Virus record (IMG/VR): IMGVR_UViG_3300044825_001015
Coordinates: 40,845-104,844 of that record
DNA: 64,000 nucleotides
From: a virus
Direction: 5' to 3' (one strand)
Both the position numbers and the translations under genes were made by a program. How positions within the stretch are numbered: position 1 is the first letter of the stretch; each line of letters opens with the position of its first letter. Under the pieces are notes generated by a model, which saw nothing but the letters and a program-made list of their open reading frames with translations, made no database searches and was not told where the DNA came from. Positions 17,398 through 64,000 of the stretch are shown here, one piece after another.

Positions 17398-17713
17398 GGC
17401 TGATACCAAACAGCCATACGCACTTCTAAGCCTTTATGAAAAATTGTATACTGAAAAGTACAACAAAAGTGCCCGACTTAATAAGTTCAAAGAAAAGTGG
17501 GCTATGCAAGACGTTATTGAATCAGTCGGCTATGACAGGGCGAGAGAACTGCTTGAGTATTATTTTCGCGTTACTAAGCAGGGGCATCCGATTCAATGGT
17601 TCTTCTATAATTTCGACAGACTAGACGAAATGCTTCTTCAATCAGAAGAAGATGCAATAAGGCGCAGGAAAATGCGCGAGGCTACTAAGAAGATGGTGGA
17701 GGAAAGACTATGA
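17390..17713 (+). CDS. Hypothetical protein upstream of the helicase
   Basis: AAGGAG SD; ATGA overlap with dnaB. Confidence 0.6.
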   Translation: MAKADTKQPYALLSLYEKLYTEKYNKSARLNKFKEKWAMQDVIESVGYDRARELLEYYFRVTKQGHPIQWFFYNFDRLDEMLLQSEEDAIRRRKMREATKKMVEERL

Positions 17714-28340: not shown

Positions 28341-28502
28341 ATGAAATTATATGAAGATATAAATTGGTTAAAAAAAAGATATGTGGTAGAGAAAAAGACA
28401 ACTCTGCAAATGGCTAAAGAGGCAGGATGCTCTCATATGACTATTCAAAGGGCACTAGAAAAATATGGACTTATTAAAAATCAAAGAAAGTGGACTAAGT
28501 GA
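28341..28502 (+). CDS. Small HTH protein (not in the ORF track)
   Basis: WLKKRY..TTLQMAKEAGCSHMTIQRAL. Confidence 0.65.
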   Translation: MKLYEDINWLKKRYVVEKKTTLQMAKEAGCSHMTIQRALEKYGLIKNQRKWTK

Positions 28503-29278
28503 TTCCTAAAAAAATTTGGCAGACTTATAGAACAGAATATTCTGAACTGCCTGATTACGCAAAAGAGGCAGCCGAGACTTGGATAAATAAAAATCCAGAA
28601 TGGGAATATAACTATTTATCAGACTCAGATGTTCTAGATTTTGTTAAAGATAACTTTGGAAATAAATGGTTAAGTATTTTTAATTCATGTCCAGTTGGAG
28701 TTATGAAAGCAGATATATGGAGAATAATGACTCTATATGTGAACGGTGGAATATACACGGACCTTGATACAATATGCCATGTTCCCATCGATACTTGGAT
28801 TAAAAATATTCCTAATAAAAGAGTTATTTTAAATGCGGAGCATGAAATTCATATTCAACAATGGACATTCCTGTCAGAAGATAGCCATCCTCTTTTTTCT
28901 TATATGTTAGAAAATATAGAAGAGGCTTTTCATGATCCAGATTATTCAAACCCACATTTTGTCCATGCAATGACTGGTCCAGGAATATTTACTAGATCTG
29001 TTCTAGAGTTCCTTGATATGTGGGAACCTTCAGATCATGTAAATGGAGATATTTATATGGGAGATGAATATGCAAAGTTTAATATACATAAGGTAAATTT
29101 TATTGAAGATGTTGATAAAATTAATAATTTACCATCATCTATAGAAAATGAAATTTTTATTGTTCCATCTCATAGATTTTTTCACAATGAAGTATCTTCA
29201 CATTTATATGGAAGTCAGTCATGGAGTGACGGTCAGTACGCACAATGGATACTTGAAAGAGAGAAATATGCAAACTAA
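28499..29278 (+). CDS. Glycosyltransferase, GT32 / DXD (Och1-like)
   Basis: IPKKIWQT; KADIWR..LY..GGIYTDLD; TGPG. Confidence 0.85.
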   Translation: MIPKKIWQTYRTEYSELPDYAKEAAETWINKNPEWEYNYLSDSDVLDFVKDNFGNKWLSIFNSCPVGVMKADIWRIMTLYVNGGIYTDLDTICHVPIDTWIKNIPNKRVILNAEHEIHIQQWTFLSEDSHPLFSYMLENIEEAFHDPDYSNPHFVHAMTGPGIFTRSVLEFLDMWEPSDHVNGDIYMGDEYAKFNIHKVNFIEDVDKINNLPSSIENEIFIVPSHRFFHNEVSSHLYGSQSWSDGQYAQWILEREKYAN

Positions 29279-49251: not shown

Positions 49252-50767
49252 CATATCTAACAGGAAATGTTAAGATCACAGAGGCTACAAAGTCTGAGCC
49301 TGTTTATTCTAGCAATAATATTAATATCACAGCATCCAATGCAAAGTCTGATGATAGACCATGGATGGCTTATTATGTAACTGCCGATGAATTCTTTGAG
49401 GTTCTGCGTATTGCATACGATGACACTTATGGCGGTGGATCAGATACCCCATGGCACCCAGAGGACATGTACGTTAATGTCTCTTGTGTCCTAGAGGTAG
49501 TTACAAATACTTTATCAAACATGGCAAAACTTAGGTCAGGTCGCCAGGTAAAAGGAATTAAGGAAGCATGACAGAAGTTCAGCATGTAGCCAATGCTCTT
49601 ATGAAGTCATGGTTTCCTAAGAGCCATAGCGATCAGTCCTGGCTAACTAGTGAAGATGGTCAAAACTGGTATGACATAGCCATGCTAGATGCGGCGGTAG
49701 CAATAGATGCCTATTTAGATTGGCAGTTAAAGTACGGGGACGATCTTAAATAATGTACGTTAAATGCTGGCAATGCTCAGAAAGTATTGATACAATTTCA
49801 GTAGAGAAGCAAATCTACAGTAATGTAATCAATGATCTGCGCGGGATGCTTTGCAAGAGTTCTATAGGTGACTCCTGCGATCTTGATTGGCGGCATGAAG
49901 ATTGTAGAGTAATATCAGCACTTATTAAACACTATAAGGAAAAACTATGAAGGTAACTGATTTAGAAGATATTGTTAGTCGTGTAGCACTAGACTTCTTT
50001 CATTTTAAGAATCCTGGGTTCTCAGCAATTGATAACCCAAAGAGCGTTCAGACCGCTATTGACGACACCGCTTTTGTTATTAATAAGTTTATTGGATATT
50101 TTAATCAGATGGCAGAAGGAGAAGTAAATGGCAAGTCAGGAAAATGAGGATCTTCTTAGGGATCTTAACATTGCAAGCCAGGATGTAAAGAAGGCAACCG
50201 CTGGAAAGTCTGGCGAGGGTGCTGAGAAGAAGTACGGTCAAGCCTACGCTGCTTGCGTTAAGGCAGGCATCAAGCCTCCCCTAAAGCGCAAGTACCGTCC
50301 ATGAAAAGTCCTTGCACTAGCAATAAGCATTCTGAATATACATGCCTCATAAAATGGGGAGTAAGCAGTAAGAAGTTTAAGGTAGAAAAGTGGTGTAAAG
50401 AATGCATACAGCATCATTCCCATACACATATCGTACAGGAATATCTCGCCACGAATGAGCGCGAAAAAGAGAAACACACACCCAATAATGAGCCTAAGCC
50501 GCGACGCGGCAGAAAGAAGAAGACATGAGAAACTTTGGAATTGTGGTCGGAAGATGGACGGGTATTTGGGCATGGGTATGGTATGCAGACATTATGCATG
50601 AATCAGATGATGTGCCGTATATGTCGTTCAATGCCCTCTCAAAGAGAGGGGCATTGCGTAAGGCCAAAAGATATATCCGCCGCCTGACTTCCCCCATCGA
50701 AGAGAAGAATGCATATATTTACTACTACGATGAGAACCAATTTAAAACTGGTAAAATGGAAATATGA
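49248..50767 (+). CDS. Run of small hypothetical genes (49248-49571, 49568-49753, 49753-49950, 49947-50147, 50128-50304, 50301-50528, 50525-50767)
   Basis: Tightly overlapping stop/start codons. Confidence 0.5.
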
Positions 50768-51339
50768 GCGTATTATATAAAGATAACTTCTTATCTCAGG
50801 AAGAGATTGATATCTTCCTAGAATTTTACGACTTCATTGATAAGAATGATATGTGGGAGTCTTCCACCATGGATTTTTGGGATGGAAGAACGTTTGAATT
50901 CTCATATTATATGAAGACATTCGGGGATAGAGATAAATTTAAGTTCTTTATGTCAATTCTCAAAAGAATGCAGCAGACAATAATGCATGAATTCGGCCTT
51001 ATAGATATTATTTATGCCGATACAATGCAAATTGTCAAATGGAAAGATGGTACTGAGCAGCCCCCCCACGCAGACAATGTAGAGCAAGATGGGACTCCCA
51101 ACGTAAGTCCATGGCGTCTATACTCAGGTATTATTTATCTCAATGATGACTATGAGGGTGGTCAGACTTATTTTCCGAACCTCAAGCAAGAGATAGAGCC
51201 TAAGGCTGGGAGACTTGGCATGTTCTATGCTGATTTAGAACACACCCACGGGGTGAAGAAAGTAGTTGGGGGAGAAAGAAAAACAATAATTACTTTCTGG
51301 AATCATGAGTTATTAAACAAGACACTAAGGTTAGGATAA
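50764..51339 (+). CDS. 2OG-Fe(II) oxygenase, prolyl-4-hydroxylase-like
   Basis: PHAD..YLNDDYEGG..HGVKKV..R. Confidence 0.85.
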   Translation: MSVLYKDNFLSQEEIDIFLEFYDFIDKNDMWESSTMDFWDGRTFEFSYYMKTFGDRDKFKFFMSILKRMQQTIMHEFGLIDIIYADTMQIVKWKDGTEQPPHADNVEQDGTPNVSPWRLYSGIIYLNDDYEGGQTYFPNLKQEIEPKAGRLGMFYADLEHTHGVKKVVGGERKTIITFWNHELLNKTLRLG

Positions 51340-51456
51340 TTATGTTTAGTTTTGTAGGAGAGGCCGTCAATGGTGTTGTGGATAAGTTTGTCGATTGGCT
51401 AGTGCCACTTGATAACTTTGGTCCACTCACAGATGACGATGAAGTCTCTTGGTAAG

Positions 51457-51957
51457 ATGAGAAAATACTATGCCAGGGTAAAAGCACCAAGCGAGCATAT
51501 CTGTCAATTCTACAGCCTTCCTAGGCTGTCTAAATTAGACTGGGTGCCGTTTGAGGGCTTTACTGGTTTTCTCATCCCAGAGGAAATTTGGGGGAAAGAA
51601 AAGTTCCTGGCAGCAGTAAAAGAAAGATATCCACAATCACTAGCCATCATAATGAGGCTGGAACCAGGAACCGCCTATACATGGCATAAGGATGTAGATA
51701 GATCGTTCACGATCAATATGCTGATGCATCGAAATGGGCATAGCCATACTGTATTCGGAGAAAAGGAATCTGATTACACTAATTCAATTCATGAATTAGA
51801 TTATGAGCCAGGATATTTCTATCTATTCAATACCCAAGAATTGCATGAGGTATATAATTTAGATGAGTATAGATATTTATTTACCATGAAAATCGTAACT
51901 GAGGATTCTTATGAAGATGTACTCAGTTGGGCGGAGGCGAAAGGGTGGCTGTATTAA
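51457..51957 (+). CDS. Cupin/2OG-oxygenase-like protein
   Basis: WHKD..FNTQELHEVYN..R. Confidence 0.6.
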   Translation: MRKYYARVKAPSEHICQFYSLPRLSKLDWVPFEGFTGFLIPEEIWGKEKFLAAVKERYPQSLAIIMRLEPGTAYTWHKDVDRSFTINMLMHRNGHSHTVFGEKESDYTNSIHELDYEPGYFYLFNTQELHEVYNLDEYRYLFTMKIVTEDSYEDVLSWAEAKGWLY

Positions 51958-52424
51958 AGTGGGCATCTTTCCTTGTAGGACTATGGATTATATCCTATAC
52001 TATAACTACGATCATCTTGAGGATGAACAAGAAGCAATATAATATAACACACTACTATCCACAGAATGCGATAAATATATGAGCGACTTAGATAAGATGC
52101 TTCAGGAAATGGAAAGGCTTCTCAAGAGGTACAGAAGGCTTCTGAATATCTCTACGCCTATCCTTGTGGGTATCTTTGTGTCGCTATTTTTTGCAGCATA
52201 CATGGTCTATATCATAGGGATAAATTAATGAATCAGAATCCACATGGGGCAGTTGGAAGTGACTGTCTTACTACACTATTGGCGGGGGGATGCTTTATGA
52301 TTCTCCTCTTTACTACTATAGTAATTATACTAGGATGGCTCTTTACATGAGTACAAAAGAAACACTAATGATAGCAATCTATTCTTTGGCTATTGTCTAT
52401 TTGACAGCACGAATTGGCTATTTT

Positions 52425-52799
52425 TTGTCCACATAGGGCTATATACATGTGGATAAGTTGTGTATAACTTCATACAAATTGTGAATAAAGATATACAACT
52501 ATTAAATTAATTGTGTAGGTGTAATGGGCCAAGATACACCCCCCATCGTAATGTCAAGAAAAATGGGGCATTTTTATAATATATTTACCAAATATGACCC
52601 CATATTATTTAATTATGCCAAATTCTGTAAAATTCCATGAAAAAATTAGCCCCTTCGTAATATGCCCAAAGATATCCACAATCTGTGGATAAAATGTGGG
52701 CGGGATATGTAATGTGTATCCTATATTTATCATATATAGTATATGTAAAGGATTAGATCCAATTACCCCCCTGTGGATAACTTGTGGAAAATATCCACA
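52425..52799. promoter_or_regulatory. Cluster of DnaA boxes
   Basis: TTGTCCACA 52425; TGTGGATAA 52448, 52684, 52772; TGTGTATAA 52459; TGTGAATAA 52480; ATATCCACA 52672, 52791; TGTGGAAAA 52783. Confidence 0.75.
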
Positions 52800-52912
52800 A
52801 ATTTCCATGATTTTTTTATGTCCGTCGTAATGTCTAATTAATTTTTTATATCGGCGCTATCTCCGAAATTTCTAAAAATTTCCATGATTTTTTATAAGCC
52901 GTCGTAATATGC

Positions 52913-52960
52913 TTGACAAATTTTATTGTCGGTGCCGCCACCGAAATCGGTGGCTGTCAA
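52913..52960. repeat. 48-bp dyad element, copy 1
   Basis: TTGACA-N10-TCGGTG-N4-CACCGA-N10-TGTCAA. Confidence 0.85.
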
Positions 52961-52961
52961 G

Positions 52962-53210
52962 TCACAACATGAATGCAATCCAATTGTCAATCCAATCCTG
53001 CTGGGTCCAATTGTCAATATTGGCATATCGCTCTGGGGTGAACTGCTTGCGAATCTCCTCCGCCTCAGGGTACTTGGAAGGAATAGAGAATCCCCAAGGT
53101 GTGAAGTACCCATCCTCTGCGATAGCCTGCTTCACCTGGGCGGTGAAGTTGGGCTTATCAAACTCAAGGATACCCATGTCAATCGCTGCAACTGCTTCAT
53201 CAAATGTCAT
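52962..53210 (-). CDS. Hypothetical protein (leaderless)
   Basis: ATG 6 nt after the -10 of promoter 53217-53238. Confidence 0.6.
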   Translation of the reverse strand: MTFDEAVAAIDMGILEFDKPNFTAQVKQAIAEDGYFTPWGFSIPSKYPEAEEIRKQFTPERYANIDNWTQQDWIDNWIAFML

Positions 53211-53216
53211 ATCCAT

Positions 53217-53238
53217 ACTATACACCCGCCCTCTGACA
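53217..53238 (-). promoter_or_regulatory. PafBC/RecA-NDp-type promoter
   Basis: TGTCAG-AGGGCGGGTG-TATAGT. Confidence 0.75.
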
Positions 53239-53396
53239 TTAGTCAAGAAAAGTGGTCTGGCTGCTAGGAATTTCAAGGCTCCTGCTTTAGTTAACGACTA
53301 GGGCGTCCCCTGATAGCCGCACCAGACCTTCTACCTTACCTACTCCAATATTGTATCACTTCAACTTTTTGTACGTCAAGCCCTGGCTTGATGGGT

Positions 53397-53753
53397 CTAC
53401 TCAGCCCCTCGCTGAACGAACGACGGAGCATATCGGCTTGTATAGTCTTCGATAGTTCCTCGGGCAGTTGTACCACCAGCCGCAAATCCACGACCAGGGT
53501 TGTAGTCGGGTACTTCTTCATAGTCATTCACCACCTCATGCATGATACGAGAGGCCATCTCACCAATCACGGGATCGCCAATGCCATAGCGCCAGTCAAT
53601 CTCGTTGAGCATGAACCATCCAATCGCAACCTTGTGCAACATAGCCGCAGGATATCCACCAGCAGTCTTTACTAGATTAGCAAACTGATATGGATTATAG
53701 AGCCTGTTATTTGCTGCCTCCACAAATGCTTTCGCTGCCTTTTCCTCTATCAT
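53397..53753 (-). CDS. Hypothetical protein
   Basis: GAAAGGA SD. Confidence 0.6.
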   Translation of the reverse strand: MIEEKAAKAFVEAANNRLYNPYQFANLVKTAGGYPAAMLHKVAIGWFMLNEIDWRYGIGDPVIGEMASRIMHEVVNDYEEVPDYNPGRGFAAGGTTARGTIEDYTSRYAPSFVQRGAE

Positions 53754-53779
53754 GATATCCTTTCGATGGGGAGTCTACA

Positions 53780-54142
53780 TTATACACGAACGAGCGGGTC
53801 TTTGCTAGTGGCAATGGAAGAAGGAGCCTTTACTCCCCCCTCGCATGTGCAGTACATCATGTGGTAATGACAATCAAAACATGTAACAAACTCTATAACG
53901 TATCCCTCTTTACTACGACCCTTGAGTTTCTTAGGCTTGCGAACAGCAGTCATAGGTGGAACATGTGGACGGATAACAGCAGGCTCTACCTCAGGTAGAC
54001 CATCGTCACGCTTTCCTGTACGTCCTTCTAGTTTCCCGCCCTCTTCTTGATAATCCTTCAGAGCAGTCATCATCTCAGCAGTAAAGCGACCACGCTCTCC
54101 TACTGTGAATCCCAGACTACGCAGATACTCACGCTTGTCCAT
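53780..54142 (-). CDS. Lsr2-like DNA-binding-domain protein with C-terminal Cys cluster
   Basis: REYLRSLGFTVGERGRFTAE resembles the Lsr2 C-terminal domain with its RGR AT-hook. Confidence 0.7.
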   Translation of the reverse strand: MDKREYLRSLGFTVGERGRFTAEMMTALKDYQEEGGKLEGRTGKRDDGLPEVEPAVIRPHVPPMTAVRKPKKLKGRSKEGYVIEFVTCFDCHYHMMYCTCEGGVKAPSSIATSKDPLVRV

Positions 54143-56379
54143 TCCATACTCCGTTCTCTGTCATGATCTCTACTTGTACCTCTAGGTTGTATTCAGCCTG
54201 AGTATAGAATCTGAAAGCAACATCAACCATTCTAAGCAGGGCAGCATCATTCAACATAGCCGCCTCGTTCTCGTATGTCCTAAGATGGTCATGATCTTCT
54301 GAGTGTAGTTCCCACACATACCCGCCAGGACCACAGTCAATCTCTATAAACTTTAGCATTAGATATCCATCCTTAGTTGTCCATCGACCTGATTAGCCCA
54401 CTCCGCTTCCTCGCGCTCGTAGTCTGCCCACAACTCATCTGGCTCTGAGCAATCCCAGAAGAGCGCATCCCACAGACGCAACTCATCGCACATTGAGCGA
54501 CCTGTCACCACCGCACCGTTAGGCAACTCATACTTACGATCAAACACAGTCTCATCAGAAAACTCGTAGTCCCAGTTATCTTGCATGTCTGCCCAACCTA
54601 GGATGTATGGATCGGAGTCACGCTGTAACTCATCGAATATCTCCTGCACGCGCAACTGAATGTCATGCGGAATCGGCGGGTAGAAGTTAGCAGTAAGGTG
54701 CATGGTGATATCTGTCATTAGTCCTCCACAGGATCGACACTAACGGAATCTTGGATATAGCCGCCCTCAACAAGAATGGCGTCGGAATGATTATACTTGC
54801 CATTCCAGAAGTTCGCAAGAACATCGTCAAGCGTGTCTGCCTCTACGAACAAGTCCCACCAGTCCTCGGTTTGATAACTAATCTTATACTTAGGCATAAG
54901 GAACCTCCAATGGAAGAACGAACCAGTCACCATCACCATGATTAGATCCATAGTCAATGGCTTCATCCCTAGAAACGAACGGTCCATGAAGAGTATGACC
55001 ATCGAAAGCATTACCAAATGCAACTATGTATTTCACAGTTCCTCCCCATTCTCATCCTGATAGATAATTCCATAGGAATCACCAAAGTCCTCATACACCC
55101 AATCTTCGATATACGCCAGCACTTCCTCTAGGGTAGGCTCATATGGCTCGGCATTATCATCACCACGGCTGCCATAATCGTTCATAGCCTGCAATGATTC
55201 TACAATCTGGACAACATCATAGGTAACAGTCTTGATAGCGTTGATACGTTCAGGAAGAGACATTATTACCCACCATCCTACCCGACACCACTATCCCAGG
55301 AGCAGGCCAGGTATCGACAATGTATCCAAGAAGTCTAACTAGAGACTCATCAAGTGCTGCCGTGATAGGTGTATCATCATCTGGCGCTTCCCAGCGATCA
55401 GGTAGCCTATCGTCAGAAATAAAGATATTACCATCTGGGAAGTAGGCGGCGGTATCAGATTCTACCCCCCACCTCTGAGTATCTGTGTCATAGAATACAA
55501 CATAGTGCAACTGCATGATTACTCCTTATCCTGCGTAGGGCTGGGTCCAGTCCCAGGCATACTCCTGGAGAATCTCTTCTACCCTAGCAATAGCCTCGCT
55601 CTCATCATCAGCGTCAATGATGAAACTAACATTCTGAACGTCTACTGAAATATCCATCAGTCCTCCATGAAGTTGTAGTAGTAGCGAGTATAGCCAATCG
55701 GCTCGGAAGAGTCAAGAGGGTCAAGGGTGGGATGGGAAGAATACTGCAACGTCCCCTTCACTCCATCACTCTTACGCTTGACAATACACAGATCATAGAA
55801 GAATCCTAGAACCTCATACTGCTCTAGCATCTGATCTTTGGTAAGCATATTACTGGCTAGCATCAGTCCTCTGCCTCCTCATATGTCATGAGATACAAAC
55901 TCTGCTCTCTTACCACCCACACCAAACCCTCGCGGGTGTTGGTGTTGAGATATTCTAGTGCATCCTCATAGGTCCAGTCAATAGCATCCAGAATTTCATA
56001 GTGCCTATCATCATCTACCTCATCAGAGGATAGCCAATTCATATCAGCAATAAACTGATCCCACTCCAACTCAAATCCATAGTCGTGAGCCAATTCGATA
56101 ACTAGGCACATGAATTCTAGGTTTGATCTATGGCTACCGTCAATGTAGCAACCAGTCTCAGTCTTCATCTGGGATTACATCCTCCACGGTGGGAACAATA
56201 GAAATGTTGTTCATGATCTCGTTATACAACTCAGGATCACGACCACTAGCAAGGTCGTCAGCCAACTGCTCCAACTCCTCGCGGGTCATGTCATCATATG
56301 CCTCATACTCATACTCAAAATCCATGAAATGACCAGTTCCCTCATAGATGAGTTCTACTGAGAATGTGATAGTAGCCAT
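54129..56379 (-). CDS. Operon of small acidic hypothetical early proteins (54129-54359, 54359-54718, 54718-54897, 55033-55263, 55250-55516, 55657-55863, 55863-56168, 56158-56379)
   Basis: Overlapping stop/start codons and GGAG SDs. Confidence 0.55.
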
Positions 56380-56648
56380 TCTAACTCCAGTCGTCTGGGC
56401 GGAATCCGCCTGATGTAAGCCAATTATCCAATGCAAAGAAGGCATCTGTCAAGAAATCCATAGCCTCTTCTGCATCAACTTCCAAAGTTCCCCACTCCTC
56501 CCAACGTGCAAGCGCGACGCGGATAGAAGAAAGAGTTTCATTCGGGTCCATATTCTCTCCTTTCTAGGTATATCTAGTAAAGCCTATGCGAGAGTATATG
56601 TCAAGCAGGTTTTCTGTGATTTCCGTGATTTTTTCGTAACCGTCGTAA

Positions 56649-56696
56649 TTGACATTAGGTAGATTCGGTGCTGCCACCGATTTGCGGATTTGTCAA
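56649..56696. repeat. 48-bp dyad element, copy 2
   Basis: TTGACA-N10-TCGGTG-CTGC-CACCGA-N10-TGTCAA. Confidence 0.85.
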
Positions 56697-56697
56697 G

Positions 56698-56765
56698 CCC
56701 CACCCCAGAGAATCGAACTCTGCCCGACAGGTTTTGGAGGCCCGTCTGCGCCCAGCGCGGGTGGA
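56698..56765 (-). tRNA. trnW: Atypical 68-nt tRNA-Trp (CCA) with a minimal D arm
   Basis: TCCACCC/GGGTGGG, D arm GCGC-TGG-GCGC, loop CT-CCA-AA, T arm CAGAG-TTCGATT-CTCTG, discriminator G. Confidence 0.7.
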
Positions 56766-56768
56766 TCG

Positions 56769-56870
56769 GAGCAGTTTATCCATTGTCCAATCTAGGATTC
56801 CCTCATGCTCAGGAGGTTTTCGGCCCCATGCCTGCCGATGGCAGGGCAGTTTTACATCATGCCCAGGATG
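56769..56870 (-). ncRNA. Two tandem H-type pseudoknot motifs (56844-56870 and 56769-56816)
   Basis: CATC-CTGGGCAT-GATG-TAAAAC-TGCCC and CCTC-CTGAGCAT-GAGG-..-TAAAC-TGCTC. Confidence 0.7.
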
Positions 56871-56875
56871 TTTGA

Positions 56876-57880
56876 TTACGCGAAGGCGATTTCCTTGACC
56901 GCCTTCAGGATGCGACCCTTCTCCGCATTGGTGACAGGATCGAAACCGCTAGCGGCTGCTGCAACATTCTCAGCACCCCGCTCACCACGGCCCTTGCGGA
57001 ACCAGTCCAGACGCTCCGTGAGAGCATTGAACGCACCCCACGCGGTGCCTGCGATCATGTTAGTGGTGTCGGAAGAGTAAATCTCCTCCAGCAGATCGAC
57101 CTTAGTCTCCCACTTCTTGACAGCACCCTTGGCATCCTTGTCGGGACGCGGGTAGACAGCCTCAACAATGGCATCAAACTTAGCCTTGGTAATCTCCTTG
57201 GCAATAAGAGCCTGAGCCTCCTTATCGAAGGTGTCAAGGTACTGATTGGCGAGAGAAAGAGCCTCGCGTGCAGCCTGAACCTTACCACCCACGGTCTGCG
57301 TGTGGCGAATCTTGAAGGACTGCTTCACACCCTGAAGAGCCATGTTCAGAGTGTTCTGGCACACCACGCGAACGGGAGTGATGGAAGCCTGCACAGCAGT
57401 AGAACCATCATGCGAGGTGTGGACGAGAAGGTAGGACTTCACAACATCCGACACACCATTGGGGTCAAGGACAGTCTCACGCTCCAGCGCAAGCGAACCG
57501 AACACGACACGACCCTGGCGAATAGAGCCAGCAGTCTCCCAACGACCACCGTCAAGGAGGGCGTCACCAAAGTTGAAAAGATCCTCGTTCTGAAGAACGT
57601 GGTAGCGCTCACCAACGGTAGCAAGAACGTCAGTACCCTGGTCGAATGGGTTGTCACGAAGGACCATGTAGGAAGGCGTGATCACATTGTACGCCTTGGG
57701 GTAAGGAACGGCCTCCAGGCGAACGTTCCAGTTGGACAGGTAAGCCGCATCCAGCATCTCCTGGGTGGACTTCTCCTCAAAGAACACGGTCCCAAGACCA
57801 TGCCAAGCGGGTTCGCGGAAAGAAGCAAAAGACTGCTTCTCGCCATCCCGACTAACCTCTACTGCGTGTGGCATATTCAT
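56876..57880 (-). CDS. DUF932 (phage/plasmid TIGR03299-like) protein
   Basis: PAWHGLG, WETAG, SHDGS, TPVRVVCQNT, RHT, GTAWGAFNALTE. Confidence 0.9.
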   Translation of the reverse strand: MNMPHAVEVSRDGEKQSFASFREPAWHGLGTVFFEEKSTQEMLDAAYLSNWNVRLEAVPYPKAYNVITPSYMVLRDNPFDQGTDVLATVGERYHVLQNEDLFNFGDALLDGGRWETAGSIRQGRVVFGSLALERETVLDPNGVSDVVKSYLLVHTSHDGSTAVQASITPVRVVCQNTLNMALQGVKQSFKIRHTQTVGGKVQAAREALSLANQYLDTFDKEAQALIAKEITKAKFDAIVEAVYPRPDKDAKGAVKKWETKVDLLEEIYSSDTTNMIAGTAWGAFNALTERLDWFRKGRGERGAENVAAAASGFDPVTNAEKGRILKAVKEIAFA

Positions 57881-57908
57881 CTCCTTAGTTGATCGAACTT
57901 ATGGAACT

Positions 57909-57930
57909 ACTATACACCTGGGGACTGACA
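57909..57930 (-). promoter_or_regulatory. PafBC/RecA-NDp-type promoter
   Basis: TGTCAG-TCCCCAGGTG-TATAGT. Confidence 0.75.
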
Positions 57931-57980
57931 CTCGCAAGACTTTTTCTAAAAAATCCGTGAAAAATATTCTCTCGTCGTAA

Positions 57981-58013
57981 TTGACTTTACTAGGATTTCG
58001 GGGCAGGCACCGA
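57981..58013. repeat. Dyad element, copy 3 (partial)
   Basis: TTGACT-N11-TCGGGG-CAGG-CACCGA. Confidence 0.7.
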
Positions 58014-58018
58014 AAATA

Positions 58019-58046
58019 TGAGCAGTTTTTCGTCATGCTCAGGACG
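58019..58046 (-). ncRNA. H-type pseudoknot motif
   Basis: CGTC-CTGAGCAT-GACG-AAAAAC-TGCTCA. Confidence 0.7.
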
Positions 58047-58147
58047 CCATTAATGGTTGCAATGCTGGGGAATATAGGCGCTATTGGAAGTCCATGAGTC
58101 CCTAGGTTGACTTTCTCTTCCCTCACCCTATGTTGCCATACTCTGCG

Positions 58148-58220
58148 TACCCCCAACGGGATTCGAACCCGTGCTACCGCCTTGAAAGGGCGGCGTCCTT
58201 GGCCTCTAGACGATGGGGGC
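58148..58220 (-). tRNA. trnE: tRNA-Glu (UUC)
   Basis: GCCCCCA/TGGGGGT, CCGCC-CTTTCAA-GGCGG. Confidence 0.92.
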
Positions 58221-58228
58221 TATCTGGT

Positions 58229-58654
58229 CTAACTCTCAGACCAGTCAATCTCCATGCGATCCTCTGAGAAGTCTGCCTCTACATCAGCAGAGTAGTAGTG
58301 CGACTCAAGGCTAGCACTCAGATCATTCTCAAGATTATCCATGTCGTAGTTCAGAGGAACACTAACGGTCCCGCTGAATGTGACGGTCACAGTAACATCG
58401 TAGTCCTTGCTGATGCTAAGACCAAAGATATCGACAAGGCTCTGAGAAATCTCCTCGTCAATGTAGTCATACTGCTCCTTGACGTACTGCTCAAGGTTGT
58501 CGATCATCATCTGACGATCATGTGCCCTGGCCTGCCAGAAATCACGATCAGCAGTCATACTAGCAAGGGCGTTGTTCAGTTGATCAATCTTAGTCTCCAA
58601 CTCCTGCATGGTGGGCGGGAATGGATGAATGTCAGTCATGCTAGGGTCAATCAT
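58229..58654 (-). CDS. Hypothetical coiled-coil/acidic protein
   Basis: GGAGG SD; host-like codon usage. Confidence 0.65.
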   Translation of the reverse strand: MIDPSMTDIHPFPPTMQELETKIDQLNNALASMTADRDFWQARAHDRQMMIDNLEQYVKEQYDYIDEEISQSLVDIFGLSISKDYDVTVTVTFSGTVSVPLNYDMDNLENDLSASLESHYYSADVEADFSEDRMEIDWSES

Positions 58655-58655
58655 G

Positions 58656-59045
58656 TTACACCTCCATCAATGTCTTAGCGTACTTATTGATGAACTCGTT
58701 CAGGGAGAACGTGACAATGATATCAGTCAGCACTCCTGACTTCCAATCATAGTCATACAGAGTTACGGTCTTAAATGCAAAGTCAAAGACAGGAACCTTA
58801 TGCTCGTTGTCTGCAAGGTAGTTCACAGTAACACCCCAGCCAAGATCACCCTGCCATGCATCACCAACCAACTGCGAGATGATAATACGATTTGCATAAG
58901 CCTGATCGTCAATGCGTCCAGCATCCTGCACATGGTCAAGAGCATTAGCAAACCTAGCAAGCATACCCTCGCCAGCCCAATGTCCGTAGATGAAGATGGT
59001 GTTGCCATCGACCTGTCGAAGTCCGAAATTAGCGCGGTCGCCCAT
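58656..59045 (-). CDS. Hypothetical protein (MGDRANFG...)
   Basis: GAAAGG SD before ATG 59045; promoter at 59075-59096. Confidence 0.65.
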   Translation of the reverse strand: MGDRANFGLRQVDGNTIFIYGHWAGEGMLARFANALDHVQDAGRIDDQAYANRIIISQLVGDAWQGDLGWGVTVNYLADNEHKVPVFDFAFKTVTLYDYDWKSGVLTDIIVTFSLNEFINKYAKTLMEV

Positions 59046-59074
59046 GGTAGTGCCTTTCTGTAGTAGGTAGGGAA

Positions 59075-59096
59075 ACTCTATCATGTAGGTCTGACA
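59075..59096 (-). promoter_or_regulatory. PafBC/RecA-NDp-type promoter that also has a TTGACA -35
   Basis: TTGACAAC-TGTCAG-ACCTACATGA-TAGAGT. Confidence 0.75.
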
Positions 59097-59105
59097 GTTG
59101 TCAAG

Positions 59106-59188
59106 TGCCCCAAGCGGGAGTCGAACCCGCACTCCGTTATGGAACTTGATTTTGAGTCAAGCGTGTCTGCCAATTCCACCATCGGGGC
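59106..59188 (-). tRNA. trnL: tRNA-Leu (CAA)
   Basis: GCCCCGA/TTGGGGC, CTTGA-CTCAAAA-TCAAG, long variable arm. Confidence 0.9.
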
Positions 59189-59191
59189 GTG

Positions 59192-59222
59192 TGGGCAGTT
59201 TTAGCGAACATGCCCAGGTTCG
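59192..59222 (-). ncRNA. H-type pseudoknot motif directly 5' of tRNA-Leu
   Basis: CGAAC-CTGGGCAT-GTTCG-CTAAAAC-TGCCCA. Confidence 0.7.
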
Positions 59223-59232
59223 TCCCAACTAA

Positions 59233-59608
59233 TCAGCGACCAGCGGGGATGCCATGCTTCAGAGTCTCCAACGCGGGGGTGGAGTCAATGAACTTGCCAT
59301 TCTGACGAGTGACAATACGAGTCTGGACACCATAACGGGTGTTCCAAGTCTCAAGGTAGGTGAACTTAGGGGTCTTGCTCTTCTTGCTTGCCATGTTTTC
59401 TCCTTTACTAGTAAACGGGTAGTGCATCAACTACGGCAACAATCTTACCATTTGCCGCTCTTGCAATCAAGTCTGCGCGGGACTGATTATGAATCGTGAT
59501 ATCAAAATGCGTATCATCATAGATATCAAATTCCACGCCATGCTTGATTGCTTCAAATACCCCCGCGCCCGTGGATGAGCGGGAGGGAGTACGGATAGTA
59601 GCAATCAT
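59233..59608 (-). CDS. Two small hypothetical genes (59233-59394, 59408-59608)
   Basis: SDs present; downstream of promoter 59635-59656. Confidence 0.55.
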
Positions 59609-59634
59609 GTTACCCTCTTTTCTGTTGTAGTACT

Positions 59635-59656
59635 ACTATAGCCTAGGGGTCAGACA
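59635..59656 (-). promoter_or_regulatory. PafBC/RecA-NDp-type promoter (variant)
   Basis: TGTCTG-ACCCCTAGGC-TATAGT. Confidence 0.7.
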
Positions 59657-59707
59657 CTCACAAGAAAAAATTTCTATGATTTCTGTGATTTTTCTTAAAA
59701 CTCGTAA

Positions 59708-59756
59708 TTGACATATGTGAGAATCGGTGCTGGCACCGCCCTGACAGATTTGTCAA
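59708..59756. repeat. Dyad element, copy 4
   Basis: TTGACA-N10-TCGGTG-CTGG-CACCGC-N11-TGTCAA. Confidence 0.85.
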
Positions 59757-59901
59757 GGAGATACGCTCTAGTATTCCTGACTTTCTACTTGGTCAAGGAT
59801 ATCGCAGTATAGCGAACCTAGAATGTATCCTTCATTCATCAAGTCCCGCAGGCACATGAGTACCTGATCCCAATCAGCACGCGGCATCTCTACCTTTACC
59901 A

Positions 59902-60132
59902 CTACACACCCGCCAATCTCTTACGCTCTACACCCGTCATGCCACCATAGACATGAGGCTCGAAATCCTCGTTGCGAATCGCAAATGCGAGGCAATCCTG
60001 CACAACGCTGCACGTTGCACAAATCGACTTAGCCTTTTCGATGCGCGAGGCAACACCTGAGAGAAACAGGTTGCTATCCGCATCCTTGCACGCTGCCCTA
60101 TCCTGCCACATTCTGATCCTTCTTCCACTCAC
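59902..60132 (-). CDS. whiB: WhiB-family transcription factor (early region)
   Basis: WQDRAAC..F..AKSICATCSV..C..HVYGGMTGVER. Confidence 0.88.
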   Translation of the reverse strand: MSGRRIRMWQDRAACKDADSNLFLSGVASRIEKAKSICATCSVVQDCLAFAIRNEDFEPHVYGGMTGVERKRLAGV

Positions 60133-60521
60133 GCGCTTCCTTGCGCTTGATTAGTCTAGTCTGCATCTTTCGCGGTGCTGACGGGCAGCAGCCGTAGTAG
60201 CAATTCATCCGATGCTTGCCGACATTACGGCGGGATCGAATCAAAAAGGCACCTCCTCATAGCGCACCCCATCGACAATCAGAGTGCCGTCATCCAGATA
60301 CATGCACCGCGCATAGTCGAATGCATGGTCGCCCAGCATGTAGTAGTTATCCAGCCAAGCCTTCTCAAACTCCACCGTGGTCATCATGCTACCACCTCCA
60401 CAATCTCAACAGTCTGACGGGGCGATGCCCAAAAGTCTCGGATAGTCTCAGCACCCTCGCGGGTGGCGACCGTGGAAAAGAACTGCCCATCTACGAATAC
60501 CTTGTATGTTGTCATGGCTTC

Positions 60522-60848
60522 ACCTTATCAGAGGGGTCTGACACCCAAGGGTTGGGGTCAAGGTCAAGGGTGGCCTCCAAGCGGAGGAAGTTCTCATACA
60601 GTTCTTCTAGGTTCATGCGTATACCTTATCATCTAGGTCTGACAGGCAATCACAGTCATATGAAACCTTGAGGTAGTCCTCAAAGGCTTCCACGGTCATG
60701 ATGCCCTTGTATTCATGGCACAGTCCGCACCACTTGGCATCCAGGGAAATCTCGTTATCGCAAAAGCAGCAAACGAGGTGGGAATGGAGAGTGTTGTTCA
60801 TTTCTAGCCTTTCTTTCTATGCCCTAAGGCTATCATGAGGGACTGACA
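60522..60848 (-). promoter_or_regulatory. Three tandem PafBC/RecA-NDp-type promoters (60522-60543, 60623-60644, 60827-60848)
   Basis: TGTCAG-N10-TAAGGT twice, TGTCAG-N10-TAGCCT once; each heads a tiny ORF. Confidence 0.72.
60613..60801 (-). CDS. Small Zn-finger protein
   Basis: CCFC..CGLC; GAAAGG SD. Confidence 0.55.
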   Translation of the reverse strand: MNNTLHSHLVCCFCDNEISLDAKWCGLCHEYKGIMTVEAFEDYLKVSYDCDCLSDLDDKVYA

Positions 60849-60914
60849 TTCACCGAATCCAAAATATATACAAATCGGACAACATTTCTGTGATGTATTT
60901 CACTTCGTCGTAAC

Positions 60915-60963
60915 TTGACAAATTCAAATTTCGGTGGCGGCCCCGAATTTCACTTGTTGTCAA
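60915..60963. repeat. Dyad element, copy 5
   Basis: TTGACA-N10-TCGGTG-GCGG-CCCCGA-N11-TGTCAA. Confidence 0.85.
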
Positions 60964-61144
60964 GTACCTTGTATATGACATAGATCACGGCGACTACGGG
61001 AAGTACGAGGCATGACATTCCCAGCACTAACATAGCGGTACTAAAAATGTCAAGCGCCTGCGAGTCTACAATATTATGCTCTGCCATTTCACACCCCCAC
61101 AAAGTCGCGCAGCATCTCCCGAAAGTTCTCTAGCGTGATATCGT

Positions 61145-61690
61145 TCATGCTGCACCCCCTCGCACGATAATCCAGATGAGAGCCTGCGCGGTGCGCGGTG
61201 TGATATCAAACTCCGCAGCGACAGTAGTGACAGCCTCAGAAAGTTCGCGGTATTGCGTCTTATTGGGCGAGTCAGTATCCATGCCAGCGGCTCGCATCAT
61301 CCATACGTCAATGACAACCGCGTCAGTATCGCCAGCGATAGCGCGAGCGAAAGCGTTAGTCTTTAGTCCGTTCAACGCATCAAATCCCGCGACCATGGAA
61401 GCCTGAGCCATGCGGAGATTATTGCCCAAGCCCTTAGGGGTCTGACCAAGCGAGAACGCGATAGCCTTAGCGACGTTAGTGGACCAACGCTCACGCGGCG
61501 AGAATGCTGCGACGATGGATGCGCCTACCTCTAGGGTAGTGTCAAGGTTACGGGCGACTTCCTCTGCAACCTCCTCCGCATCACGGTACCAGACGGATGC
61601 TTGCTCCATCTGCGCGAGGGTGGCGGTCATGATAATGGAACGGAAGGTGTCAGTAGCGGTAGGGGCGAGAGTATCTGTCATCGTTGTCAT
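61145..61690 (-). CDS. Helix-hairpin-helix DNA-glycosylase-like protein (leaderless)
   Basis: WY..AAFSPR..W..N; GLKT.AF; VVIDVWM; AQALIW. Confidence 0.6.
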   Translation of the reverse strand: MTTMTDTLAPTATDTFRSIIMTATLAQMEQASVWYRDAEEVAEEVARNLDTTLEVGASIVAAFSPRERWSTNVAKAIAFSLGQTPKGLGNNLRMAQASMVAGFDALNGLKTNAFARAIAGDTDAVVIDVWMMRAAGMDTDSPNKTQYRELSEAVTTVAAEFDITPRTAQALIWIIVRGGAA

Positions 61691-61696
61691 GGAATG

Positions 61697-61907
61697 ATCC
61701 TAGCACTAGGGTCCGACATTGGGAAGGGGTAATTAGTCATTTTCGGTAACGAAACGGTTACGATGCTTAGGCTTGCGAGAATACTTAGCCTTATTCCGAT
61801 GGGGCGCGGCAATATTAGAGCGGCGCAACTCCAAGGTACGCTGAATCTCATCACGGGTACGCTTACGATTCTTGATCATGGGAAAATACTAGCACACCCC
61901 TCCGACA
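61697..61907 (-). promoter_or_regulatory. Two PafBC/RecA-NDp-type promoters (61697-61718, 61886-61907)
   Basis: TGTCGG-N10-TAGGAT and TGTCGG-N10-TAGTAT; an ATG lies 6 nt downstream of each. Confidence 0.78.
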
Positions 61908-61947
61908 ATGGGAAGAAATCTCAGGAAAAATATTTTCGTGTCGTAAC

Positions 61948-61995
61948 TTGACAAACTTGGATATCGGTGGCGGCACCGAATTTAGGATTTGTCAA
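61948..61995. repeat. Dyad element, copy 6
   Basis: TTGACA-N10-TCGGTG-GCGG-CACCGA-N10-TGTCAA. Confidence 0.85.
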
Positions 61996-62350
61996 GTCTA
62001 TTTCTAATAGAGTTAGCAAGAATCTCTAGCGAGTATTCTATATCCTCTAGAATTTCAAAGTCTGCTGGATTCTCTGCAGATGCCCACATGCGCTTGCAAC
62101 GTGTGAGCAATTCTTGAATGTCATTCCATTGCATTGTGAGATTTATATCGAATGGACGACGCTCTATCACCTTGACGTTACTCACCGATCCACCTCGCAA
62201 CTGCCGCGCAGAAATCTTCAAACGTTGTCTCCTTATCGAATCCAAACGTGAAGCAGTCTACCTCGTTGTTTCCATTGTCATAGACATTGACAGTATGCGA
62301 ACCGTTCCATACATACGTCCATCCTGAGCGGGAGTCATGAAGTTCTAGCA

Positions 62351-62623
62351 TTACTCCACCGCCCGAAAGTTCTCCATGAACTGTGCAAAGTAGATCAGCG
62401 GAACGTACGGGTACACCTCATGCGAGTAGAGTGCGGCAAACTCTGGCAGAGGCTCAGTAACCCACTCATCATTCTTGAAGAATGCCAGTTCGACAGAATG
62501 CGGGAAGCGTGCGTATGCTCCATCTCCGATTGCAATGGATACCTCATCGGCCATGGGGTGAGCGATCTTGGCCCTGGCGTTGATGTAGTGCCTATCACCA
62601 TATGTTTCAGCGCGGGTAATCAT
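62351..62623 (-). CDS. Hypothetical protein
   Basis: SVELA..VYPYVP; SD present. Confidence 0.55.
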   Translation of the reverse strand: MITRAETYGDRHYINARAKIAHPMADEVSIAIGDGAYARFPHSVELAFFKNDEWVTEPLPEFAALYSHEVYPYVPLIYFAQFMENFRAVE

Positions 62624-62748
62624 TAGAAGCCTTCCTCTATTCCACCAACGATTGCCATAGCAGTAAGGATACCGCTAATAATGACGAATGACAAGACATG
62701 CTGTGCGAATGTTCTCATGATTCCTCCCTCTCGCATGTGCATGATCCA

Positions 62749-62770
62749 AAGTTACCACGGGCGTCTGACA
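62749..62770 (-). promoter_or_regulatory. PafBC/RecA-NDp-type promoter
   Basis: TGTCAG-ACGCCCGTGG-TAACTT; ATG 6 nt downstream. Confidence 0.7.
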
Positions 62771-62806
62771 GTAGAAGCCTGCCACACTTAGCGCATGTGC
62801 GGAACA

Positions 62807-63088
62807 CTAGAATTCCAATCCCATCGAAGCCAGTCCTGTGATCAGTTGGGCCTGGATCACAGGGTCATTCTTGTCCTCAGGCTTGAGCCACTTTACCATG
62901 GCAGACCCACGGGACTGCATGGTATTACCCTGCGTGTCGGTTACGAGGAACCAGTCATCCTCTAGCGGTTCGATGATGAACCACCGAGTATGGAGCATCC
63001 CCTTAGCGTTCTCTCCAAGGATACCCTCCACAAATGGTGGGCACTCTCGCATGGGAGTGGTGACGATACGATCTACTGATTCGATCAT
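62807..63088 (-). CDS. Hypothetical protein
   Basis: GAAAGG SD before MIESVD. Confidence 0.5.
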   Translation of the reverse strand: MIESVDRIVTTPMRECPPFVEGILGENAKGMLHTRWFIIEPLEDDWFLVTDTQGNTMQSRGSAMVKWLKPEDKNDPVIQAQLITGLASMGLEF

Positions 63089-63214
63089 GGCCTGACCGCC
63101 TTTCCATTGACGAGGACCCATTCCCCGCAGCCATAGCAAATCCAACGAGGGGCGGCGGTACCAAGACGGATGCTGCCCTTGCAGTTCTCACACGGTGTCT
63201 TTCTCATGTCTCCG

Positions 63215-63236
63215 ACTCTACACTAGGGGGCCGACA
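63215..63236 (-). promoter_or_regulatory. PafBC/RecA-NDp-type promoter
   Basis: TGTCGG-CCCCCTAGTG-TAGAGT; ATG 7 nt downstream. Confidence 0.75.
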
Positions 63237-63313
63237 ATAGTCAAATCCAAAATGCATACAAATCGGACATTTTCAAAGTTTTTTTTCTGGGAAAAAATCC
63301 AAGGTTTCGTAAC

Positions 63314-63345
63314 TTGACATTTTATGATTTCGGTGGCGGCACCGA
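63314..63345. repeat. Dyad element, copy 7 (partial)
   Basis: TTGACA-N10-TCGGTG-GCGG-CACCGA. Confidence 0.8.
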
Positions 63346-63423
63346 AAAATTCCATGAAATTTCTGTGACAGTAGTAATACCGTCGTAAGACTTTTTTATA
63401 TCTAATTATTCGGTCACAGGTGT

Positions 63424-63439
63424 TCGAACTGTTGTTCGA
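63424..63439. promoter_or_regulatory. LexA (SOS/Cheo) box
   Basis: TCGAAC-TGTT-GTTCGA, a perfect match to the actinobacterial TCGAAC-N4-GTTCGA. Confidence 0.7.
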
Positions 63440-63449
63440 ACCCTGCCGC

Positions 63450-63468
63450 TTAGGTTAGGCTGACCTAA
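63450..63468. promoter_or_regulatory. IdeR/DtxR iron box
   Basis: TTAGGTTAGGCTGACCTAA versus consensus TTAGGTTAGGCTAACCTAA (18/19). Confidence 0.7.
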
Positions 63469-64000
63469 GCGCACGCGCCAGACGGATTAGGTCACGGTAG
63501 TATTCTACTCGCGCCGCATCCTGTCGGGATACCGCGTCCTGCCCGATACGGGCGACCAATGCGCGGCGTTCACGTTGCGCCATAGTCTGACGCGGCGGGA
63601 TGCCACGGTAGGGATAGGCGTTCACCTACGCCCCCTAGCACTCTTAGCGTACTCCAAGACTCTCATCTCAGAGCCACAGTCGCAGATAGCGCGACCAGCG
63701 CGAGACCCACGACCATTCACGCGGTCCCAGACCACGTTGGTTACGACATGACCAACGCGCATGAACGCGCCGTCCCTAGTGGTACACGCCCCATCGAAGG
63801 ACGAGACTGCATACCAATTTCTCTTGCTATTCATGCGGACACCTCCTGCAGCACGCGACGCTTGGACTCTACGGCGAAGCGACCTGTGAGGCTACGGTTC
63901 GCGTAGCGAAGGTAGGTCATGGCCTCGCCATGGGTAATCCAACGAGTGACGGGCACACGCCCATAGATCGAAGCGTGATCCAAGCGGACTACGCGGTATC

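Follow-up and report, generated by a model that had tools for sequence, protein, structure and literature searches.

A 64,000-nucleotide (nt) stretch of viral DNA (hereafter the window; positions 40,845 to 104,844 of IMG/VR record IMGVR_UViG_3300044825_001015, the final 64 kb of one 104,844-bp contig) carries nine DnaA boxes within about 375 bp, at the point where its two gene arms converge. Conservation of these boxes across a lineage that extends from lake phages to phages of Streptomyces clearly indicates purifying selection on the array, and the parsimonious reading of their sequences is that host DnaA would bind there. We tentatively interpret the array as the DnaA-dependent replication origin of this phage, with a probability of roughly 0.35.

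To identify boxes, we accepted any match to TTATCCACA with at most one mismatch, which yielded 30 boxes in the whole window (shuffle mean 21.5) and 40 in the 104,844 bp of the genome. Nine of them fall within 52425-52799 (52425+, 52448-, 52459-, 52480-, 52672+, 52684-, 52772-, 52783- and 52791+), with outlying boxes at 51377-, 51627+ and 52055+, and all four perfect boxes of the genome lie at window positions 51377-52780, that is, inside 1.4 kb. First-order Markov simulations (n = 5000) of the 561-bp stretch 52400-52960 (guanine-plus-cytosine (GC) fraction 0.33) contained 0.33 boxes on average and 4 at most; none of the 5000 reached the observed nine, and none reached three perfect boxes, which rules out chance or AT-richness as the source of the array. 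Both inverted and tandem box pairs are present, the tandem ones with 2-bp spacers (52448/52459 and 52772/52783). An initial annotation, made from the letters alone, had already described nine boxes in some 375 bp of AT-rich, mostly non-coding DNA, the inverted pairs and the outliers at 51377 and 52055; this description stands, with 51627+ added as a third outlier.

The array occupies the genome's largest non-coding stretch. The 525 bp between open reading frames (ORFs) 52290-52436 and 52962-53276 are taken as non-coding because the small internal ORFs are not conserved in relatives, which also rules out coding sequence as an account of the array region; box 52425 alone overlaps coding DNA, namely the final codons and stop of the conserved 48-aa ORF 52290-52436. 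Two bigger apparent gaps (window 28503-29147 and genome 13531-14007) proved to be coding and were rejected as origin candidates, as was the divergent junction at genome 2464-2580, which has no boxes. The largest apparent gap is occupied by a 259-aa ORF with a GTG start (window 28499-29278), glycosyltransferase-like by eye. As the initial annotation had also recognised, the cluster sits where strand and GC content switch: plus-strand genes end at 52436 and minus-strand genes begin at 52962, GC is 0.35 at 52-53 kb versus 0.48 at 53-54 kb, and the cumulative GC skew peaks there. A chimeric assembly behind the GC switch was ruled out, as the switch is common to all six relatives described below and to the cultured phage Bmoc. 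The least stable 40-mer of the region (52704-52745; ΔG -39.8, versus a genome mean of -51.0 with a standard deviation of 4.4) ranks 12th genome-wide among non-overlapping 40-bp windows and lies between GC clamps and between the box groups. An Rfam scan of the region returned one chance-level match only (E 0.31).

To assess conservation, relatives were retrieved with the minus-arm protein encoded at 53397-53753, independently of the boxes, giving six loci that represent four distinct sequences. All six carry six to seven perfect boxes each, at the same position and beside the same GC switch. When the window was aligned with the four relatives (five sequences), boxes 52448 and 52772 were perfect in every sequence, 7 of the 9 boxes were matched by a counterpart in at least three of the four relatives, and invariant columns made up 45 of 80 in boxes versus 134 of 406 elsewhere; the GC clamps that flank 52704-52745 are likewise conserved. 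Conservation had been set beforehand as a check on the initial annotation, and the boxes are kept both in the six independently retrieved loci and in cultured Streptomyces phages. Also conserved in the array region are four plus-strand units of the form TTCnnnGA, 14-15 nt, then TCGTAATRT, spaced 77-170 bp apart and numbered 1 to 4 below; 4 of the 7 genome-wide matches to TCGTAATRT fall there, all on the plus strand. The array and its surroundings consist, from left to right, of the following parts:

51377..51385, minus strand: perfect DnaA box, an outlier within the plus-strand arm.
52425..52433, plus strand: DnaA box TTGTCCACA, one mismatch, first of sub-cluster 1; aligned box in three of the four relatives.
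52448..52467, minus strand: tandem pair, TGTGGATAA-GT-TGTGTATAA as read on the plus strand, 2-bp spacer; one box perfect, one with one mismatch.
52480..52488, minus strand: DnaA box TTATTCACA, one mismatch, fourth of sub-cluster 1; at most one mismatch in all five sequences.
52516..52530, no strand assigned: conserved motif TAGGTGTAATGGGCC, its first ten bases TAGGTGTAAT invariant in the five aligned sequences.
52546..52554, plus strand: unit 1 core TCGTAATGT.
52619..52663, plus strand: unit 2, TTCCATGA, 15 nt, then TCGTAATAT; the inverted box pair follows 8 nt further on.
52672..52692, no strand assigned: inverted DnaA-box pair ATATCCACA-ATC-TGTGGATAA, 3-bp spacer; in four of the five sequences.
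52695..52703, no strand assigned: GC cluster TGTGGGCGG, a degenerate box (four mismatches) that forms a GC clamp; TGTGGGCGGGAT conserved in the alignment.
52704..52745, no strand assigned: AT-rich segment, by ΔG the least stable 40-mer of the region.
52766..52799, no strand assigned: CCCCCC clamp, then TGTGGATAA-CT-TGTGGAAAA, overlapped by ATATCCACA; three boxes.
52789..52833, plus strand: unit 3, TTCCATGA, 14 nt, then TCGTAATGT.
52866..52910, plus strand: unit 4, TTCCATGA, 14 nt, then TCGTAATAT; abuts the first dyad.
52913..52960, no strand assigned: 48-bp dyad TTGACA...CGGTGCCGCCACCG...TGTCAA, first member of the series of dyads found along the early arm.
52962..64000, continuing to genome position ~567 as predicted terminal repeat, minus strand: GC-rich small-gene arm (the early arm), delimited by GC content, ORFs and motifs.

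Several of these parts keep their geometry as well as their sequence. Box 52425 faces the next three boxes over 14 bp, and the same arrangement (plus-strand box, N14-15, minus-strand box) recurs in the long-repeat isolates Bmoc, Daubenski and G001-G004. Within the tandem pair 52448..52467, all five aligned sequences share an identical first box, and none has more than one mismatch in the second; the inverted pair 52672..52692 is shifted by one column in relative L003 and absent from L004; box 52783 is kept in three of the five sequences and box 52791 is found in the window only. The 52766..52799 segment pairs with 52660-52680 as an inverted repeat (I3). The run TCGTAATATGCCCAAAG.TATCCACA of unit 2 is kept in the window, L001 and L005, with a shift of one base in L003, and the upstream half of unit 3 in relatives forms a hairpin followed by a T run, the stem arms of which differ between L001 and L027 by what appear, by eye, to be compensating changes. 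Beyond the array, five further 48-bp dyads of the early arm each carry TTCnnnGA-N13-14-TCGTAA on the plus side (units at 56649, 59708, 60915, 61948 and 63314), and BillNye, Bmoc and Daubenski likewise have TCGTAA units in their non-coding regions. The array region therefore shares regulatory vocabulary with the early arm, because the same unit flanks the arm dyads; no consistent reading of the units as sigma-70 or actinobacterial promoters was found on either strand.

The phage itself is tailed (portal, protease, tail-tube and tape-measure genes are present), and two WhiB genes point to an actinobacterial host. Its contig is a circular assembly, because the contig ends overlap by 128 bp. Replication genes in the window encode a DnaB-like helicase (17710-18936), a DnaG-type primase (19241-20200) and a DNA polymerase III (Pol III) alpha subunit (20972-24247), bearing out the initial annotation's statement that the phage supplies its own helicase, primase and polymerase; SSB is likewise encoded, along with recombination genes (RecA, RuvC and a Cas4-like exonuclease) and genes for nucleotide supply (RNR, ThyX, dCMP deaminase and GMP reductase, with no bacterial relatives of the last found by search). 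The identity of Pol III alpha to that of Streptomyces phages of the Stanwilliamsviridae reaches 57% at most; no DNA-level similarity to deposited phages was found. In gene order the phage is syntenic with the Streptomyces phage BillNye, a divergent junction separating the minus-strand ThyX cluster from plus-strand genes for glycosyltransferase, RNR, lysin and portal. Plus-strand transcription covers ~91 kb (GC ~0.37), and the minus-strand arm of small genes spans ~13.5 kb (GC 0.46-0.54; window 52962 through 64000 to genome 2464).

Cultured Streptomyces phages place the array relative to physical genome ends. In the short-repeat phages BillNye, Muntaha and Gilson, three to four perfect boxes lie in a syntenic non-coding region of ~1.3 kb that ends the long plus-strand arm, 7.1-7.7 kb from the right genome end. 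BillNye has a terminal repeat of 2,262 bp and an intrinsic terminator at the end of its plus-strand arm; no homologues of the flanking arm proteins could be detected in the fetched parts of BillNye, yet its non-coding region retains both boxes and TCGTAA units. An AT-rich stretch downstream of the BillNye boxes (119815-119990) has a TTAGCTAAnGAAAT-like, iteron-looking repeat in four to five copies, under an annotated, possibly spurious, minus-strand ORF. In Bmoc, an exact repeat of 11,063 bp corresponds to the GC-rich minus-strand small-gene arm (GC rising from 0.46 to 0.57) and starts inside the non-coding region, 114 bp past the first box; the Daubenski repeat (10,714 bp, from left-end mapping) starts 94 bp past the first box; and in G001-G004, for which repeat starts were computed from the offset of the right-end motif, the first box lies 93-94 bp ahead of the repeat. 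Thus, in all six long-repeat isolates the first box is 93-114 bp outside the repeat start, with repeat lengths from 10,714 to ~11,438 bp, and these phages have only two to three boxes at the homologous site. Terminal repeats of ~11 kb are also given for cluster BE1 phages in the accessible part of PMC5764925.

Conserved end motifs allow the ends of the lake phage to be predicted. Repeat boundaries immediately follow ...GTGTGTAATT in Bmoc and ...GTATGTAATG in Daubenski, and TAGGTGTAATG, invariant in the lake phages, lies ~102 bp after the first box here, which would place the left boundary after ...GTAATG, at ~52527/52528. The right repeat end is marked by the 17-mer TATGGKCGCACYATNTG, after which the record ends exactly 30 nt later in all seven of the isolate right-end matches listed. 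The 17-mer is present in 91 IMG/VR stretches and at genome 521-537 in this phage, 40.3 kb ahead of the window; it may serve terminase or otherwise signal the end throughout the lineage, and could be used to predict the ends of uncultured relatives. A search with an over-specific version of the end pattern gave no matches. Because both end motifs recur, this phage probably has a terminal repeat of ~11.9 kb, from window ~52528 to genome ~567. Contig depth is consistent with such a repeat: in the probable source run, the contig over 37873-54209 has a depth of 17.3, and the contigs that match perfectly further to the right reach 35, 29.3, 39.2, 35, 41.8 and 43.5 (approximately twofold). All of these are contig means, and a similar pattern could arise from GC bias or shared strains. 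The physical genome is then predicted at ~116.6 kb, and the repeat edge would divide the boxes into four immediately outside it and five in the first 270 bp inside.

We compared the array with bacterial origins, beginning with its tandem pair. The pattern TGTGGATAA-GT-TGTGnAYAA is generic (at least 120 viral and at least 121 bacterial stretches), and its occurrence across many phyla rules out the tandem 20-mer as a family marker; TCGTAATRT units are shared by only 5 of the 120 viral loci that carry it. The same 20-mer stands in the dnaA-dnaN spacer, the canonical actinobacterial origin, of Microbacterium nanhaiense and of two metagenome-assembled genomes (MAGs) of Ca. Planktophila, which are lake actinobacteria (MAG GC 0.45). 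DnaA of the likely host groups therefore uses such boxes, because the 20-mer sits in their dnaA-dnaN origins. Outside the boxes the array region bears no similarity to the Planktophila and Microbacterium origins, which rules out a captured copy of a host oriC. According to the accessible text of PMC8287927, a basal unwinding system has a box with two mismatches or fewer, often paired in tandem with another no more than 3 bp away, and a DnaA-trio element has at least three NAN trios within 16 bp of a box; we looked for trios on the 5' side of the strand on which the box reads TGTGGATAA, an orientation suggested by the 5'-tailed scaffolds in that source. The phage array has a box with at most two mismatches in a tandem pair whose spacer is at most 3 bp, and the Planktophila origin has, in addition, a trio-like run (TTA-CTA-CGA-CTA) 14 bp after its last box, plus an AT run, which agrees with the orientation used for the trio search.

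Taken as a DnaA-dependent origin, the array would work as follows. Host DnaA would occupy the tandem and inverted pairs on either side of the AT-rich segment 52704-52745; this segment, with GC clamps at both its edges, would open, aided by local transcription and/or a further phage factor; and the phage DnaB-like helicase would load, followed by the DnaG-type primase, SSB and Pol III alpha. Homology of the end motifs would place the array across the left edge of the repeat, so that rightward synthesis would traverse the repeat. Several lines of evidence support an origin: box density is far above chance, and the genome has no perfect box beyond the four in this area; purifying selection maintains the array; box pairs with 2-3 bp spacers, an unstable segment and the largest non-coding stretch together suggest an origin-like anatomy; and the invariant tandem pair, identical to the 20-mer of the actinobacterial dnaA-dnaN spacer, points in the same direction. 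Moreover, the phage encodes a bacterial-type replisome with no initiator found among the ORFs scanned, and the genome offers no other candidate region. Neither DnaA nor Rep families had a match among the 121 ORFs scanned, PHROGs named an initiator for none of 47 ORFs, and a phage-encoded DnaA-like binder was rejected on the basis of no Bac_DnaA or Bac_DnaA_C match in the same 121 ORFs. In BillNye, nearly all genes would be co-directional with a rightward fork from the region, which also supports an origin.

A comparable set of observations weighs against it. The boxes are almost all perfect consensus, unlike those of regulated origins. No conserved DnaA-trio run lies beside any box in the window and its four relatives, although Planktophila has one; isolated trio runs occur in one or two sequences or within the 12-bp spacer between boxes. 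The long-repeat Streptomyces relatives retain only two to three boxes, and ~30 kb separate the array from the replication genes. Both arms are transcribed towards the array, where the cumulative GC skew peak is terminus-like, although this peak is confounded by gene orientation. The initial annotation had reasoned that forks starting here would meet transcription head-on in both directions, which holds for this phage with its convergent arms but not family-wide, as the right-side genes of BillNye run away from the region. In the available portion of Davison's preprint (10.1101/866236), T5 origins are placed near mid-genome; because of this precedent, a DnaA-box region at a repeat edge need not be an origin. 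Finally, the papers searched contained no replication data for this phage family.

The alternative we take most seriously, which we nevertheless consider possible but unlikely, is a T5-like first-entry boundary, in which the right end would enter first, the early arm would be expressed, and entry or read-through would halt at the array with its bound DnaA, to resume once early proteins had released it. The likeness begins with a genome of 105-133 kb and a ~10-12 kb repeat of small early genes, and extends to a conserved non-coding region across the inner repeat edge, better conserved than the flanking ORFs, with boxes paired 2-3 bp apart in the arms of an inverted repeat around a spacer (I3). 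The fixed distance of the first box from the repeat in 6 of 6 long-repeat isolates, with ~102 bp predicted here, fits such a boundary; so does the short-repeat arrangement, as the boxes of BillNye and G005, 6.6-7.7 kb from the right end, continue to delimit a terminal small-gene block, and in this phage the arm is transcribed inwards from the predicted right end. However, a DnaA role at the T5 injection-stop signal (iss) is itself hypothetical in the accessible text of 10.1101/866236 and PMC13250531. Among 21 arm ORFs there is no A1/A2-like annotation in PHROGs, nor in Pfam, and most arm ORFs match nothing, so that distant analogues may exist; the long-repeat phage SPO1 is without such a cluster (67 scattered matches versus 51 for the control pattern, which rules out the cluster as a property of long-repeat phages in general); the order of end entry is an assumption and the repeat boundary here a prediction; and a protein on already-entered DNA would seem to be no obvious stop. 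The initial annotation had proposed a T5-like stop signal bounding a first-transferred segment and stated that the T5 iss carries repeats and DnaA-like boxes: the statement agrees with what is available of the Davison preprint, and an ~11-kb repeat with boxes at its inner edge exists in relatives, which strengthens the T5 analogy beyond what the letters alone could show, the injection stop itself being a proposal.

More generally, by analogy, T5-like coliphages and Stanwilliamsviridae-like actinophages may have independently put DnaA boxes at the inner edge of a ~10-12 kb repeat, where such boxes would delimit a first-acting, possibly first-entering, genome segment; we regard this, too, as unlikely. 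In a variant, a DnaA-fired start may set the left repeat edge, with the repeat re-synthesised from the boxes to the right-end cut site.

Quite improbable, in our view, is a DnaA-dependent insulator or regulator between the late plus-strand arm and the early arm, which would block read-through or, if the TCGTAA units are promoters, tune them. In E. coli, DnaA is established as a transcription block or transcription factor. In all lineages the array occupies the exact junction of the early arm with the end of the long plus-strand arm, TCGTAA units flank every early-arm dyad, a box pair follows unit 2 after 8 nt in the window, L001, L003 and L005 (not in L004), and a box of the window overlaps the upstream half of unit 3. 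An intrinsic terminator ends the plus-strand arm of BillNye, which can be counted on this side; yet a DnaA block looks redundant, because intrinsic terminators and dyads are already present. Somewhat more doubtful still is a role in end formation, with DnaA beside the left cut site assisting terminase or repeat duplication, much as IHF assists at lambda cos. Consistent with such a role, the first box keeps to 93-114 bp from the physical left end in all six long-repeat isolates despite the variation in repeat length, and the conserved GTAAT(G/T) at the boundary is matched here by the invariant TAGGTGTAATG; however, the boxes of BillNye and G005 are 5-6 kb from the start of their repeats, and no boxes lie beside the conserved right-end motif. 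Least probable is the datA-like sink of the initial annotation, in which hundreds of phage copies with about nine high-affinity boxes each would drain DnaA and stop host initiation: nearly all boxes are perfect-consensus (six to seven perfect per relative locus, at six loci with four distinct sequences), there is no trio part, the phage invests heavily in nucleotide supply and titration would presumably follow automatically from copy number, but titration needs neither fixed geometry nor fixed position, and a sink is unlikely as a conserved role because the long-repeat Streptomyces relatives, with two to three boxes at the corresponding position, have too few. The remaining probability goes to explanations outside those listed here.

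The early arm that begins at the array has features of its own. Its genes include an Lsr2-like gene (53780-54142), DUF932, WhiB and three tRNAs; the tRNA genes, for Trp, Glu and Leu (56697-56765, 58147-58220 and 59105-59188, minus strand), are followed directly by a dyad in two cases. In this phage, as in all six lake relatives and Bmoc, the GC content of the arm exceeds that of the remaining genome by 10-13 points; in Bmoc an Lsr2-like gene also lies inside the repeat. In one possible reading, the early arm could evade host Lsr2 silencing of AT-rich DNA and then lift silencing genome-wide. In runs from other lakes, the early arm (53205-58000) is recovered at 85-99% identity and the end of the plus-strand arm (50000-52400) is nearly absent; from this coverage, the early arm is far better conserved among strains than the neighbouring accessory genes. 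A search for relatives of ORF 51409-51957, in the plus-strand arm, returned nothing.

Box clusters were also found elsewhere among uncultured phages. Fourteen further box-rich IMG/VR loci from unrelated lineages have phage-like neighbours and neither a dnaA nor a dnaN gene; L019, L030, L034, L039, L064, L065, L075 and others hold 7-11 boxes within 700 bp, and the neighbours of these clusters include RecT, peptidase M15, Acb3 and Kyano_Gp96. Because of these loci, DnaA-box clusters in uncultured phages may be commoner than recognised. Phage DnaA boxes are commonly either put down to chance or taken over from the output of origin-prediction software; those described here are under clear selection in a widespread lineage and keep a constant position with respect to the physical end of the genome. 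Full-text searches of the literature found no paper linking DnaA boxes to these actinophages, and a term search of a Stanwilliamsviridae paper (10.1101/2024.02.16.580700) finds no mention of DnaA. The array thus provides a concrete origin candidate for a phage family with a bacterial-type replisome and no initiator, and the ends of an uncultured phage become predictable from conserved end motifs.

The array was compared with several known types of DnaA-box locus. The locus datA and similar clusters titrate DnaA; like datA, the array brings high-affinity boxes together and lacks an unwinding module, but its position is fixed relative to the genome ends and the number of boxes ranges from 2 to 11 among relatives. 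Iteron-type origins, with tandem iterons and an adjacent Rep initiator gene, differ from the array: no Rep family was found in the 121 ORFs and there is no tight iteron array; the four TCGTAA units are dispersed and recur at the borders of early cassettes. P1 oriR is a DnaA-assisted plasmid or prophage origin, and, as in P1 oriR and predicted phage origins, the array belongs to a mobile element that supplies part of its own replication machinery. Phage origins predicted by Ori-Finder have DnaA boxes adjoining an AT-rich stretch, together with other repeats, in the available portions of PMC11512268 and PMC12484599. With the Ca. Planktophila oriC, as a basal unwinding system in the sense of the accessible text of PMC8287927, the array shares consensus boxes, the identical tandem 20-mer with its 2-bp spacer, and an AT-rich segment with GC clamps beside the boxes, here a candidate unwinding element; it differs in having no conserved trio array, no similarity beyond the boxes and no adjacent dnaA or dnaN, and from bacterial oriC generally in its almost uniformly perfect boxes.

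The array also resembles the T5 iss. In the accessible part of 10.1101/866236, T5-like phages (n = 25) have eight paired DnaA boxes in a conserved non-coding iss region. Shared with the present array are a conserved non-coding region across the inner edge of a ~10-kb terminal repeat with early genes (a repeat that is verified in relatives and predicted in this phage), boxes paired 2-3 bp apart in inverted-repeat arms among many repeats and hairpins, and better conservation than that of neighbouring ORFs. The lineages are unrelated, ours being an actinophage with a DnaE polymerase, WhiB and Lsr2-like genes and no A1/A2 homologues seen, and the boxes lie outside or across the repeat edge here but ~700 bp inside it in T5; two-step entry is a feature of T5, and the likeness in this phage is one of sequence. 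If the likeness is functional, the array would be a second independent case of the T5 design, the mechanism of which is still described as open in the available text of PMC13250531, and culturable Streptomyces phages would make the 50-year-old question of the T5 iss accessible to testing in a second system.

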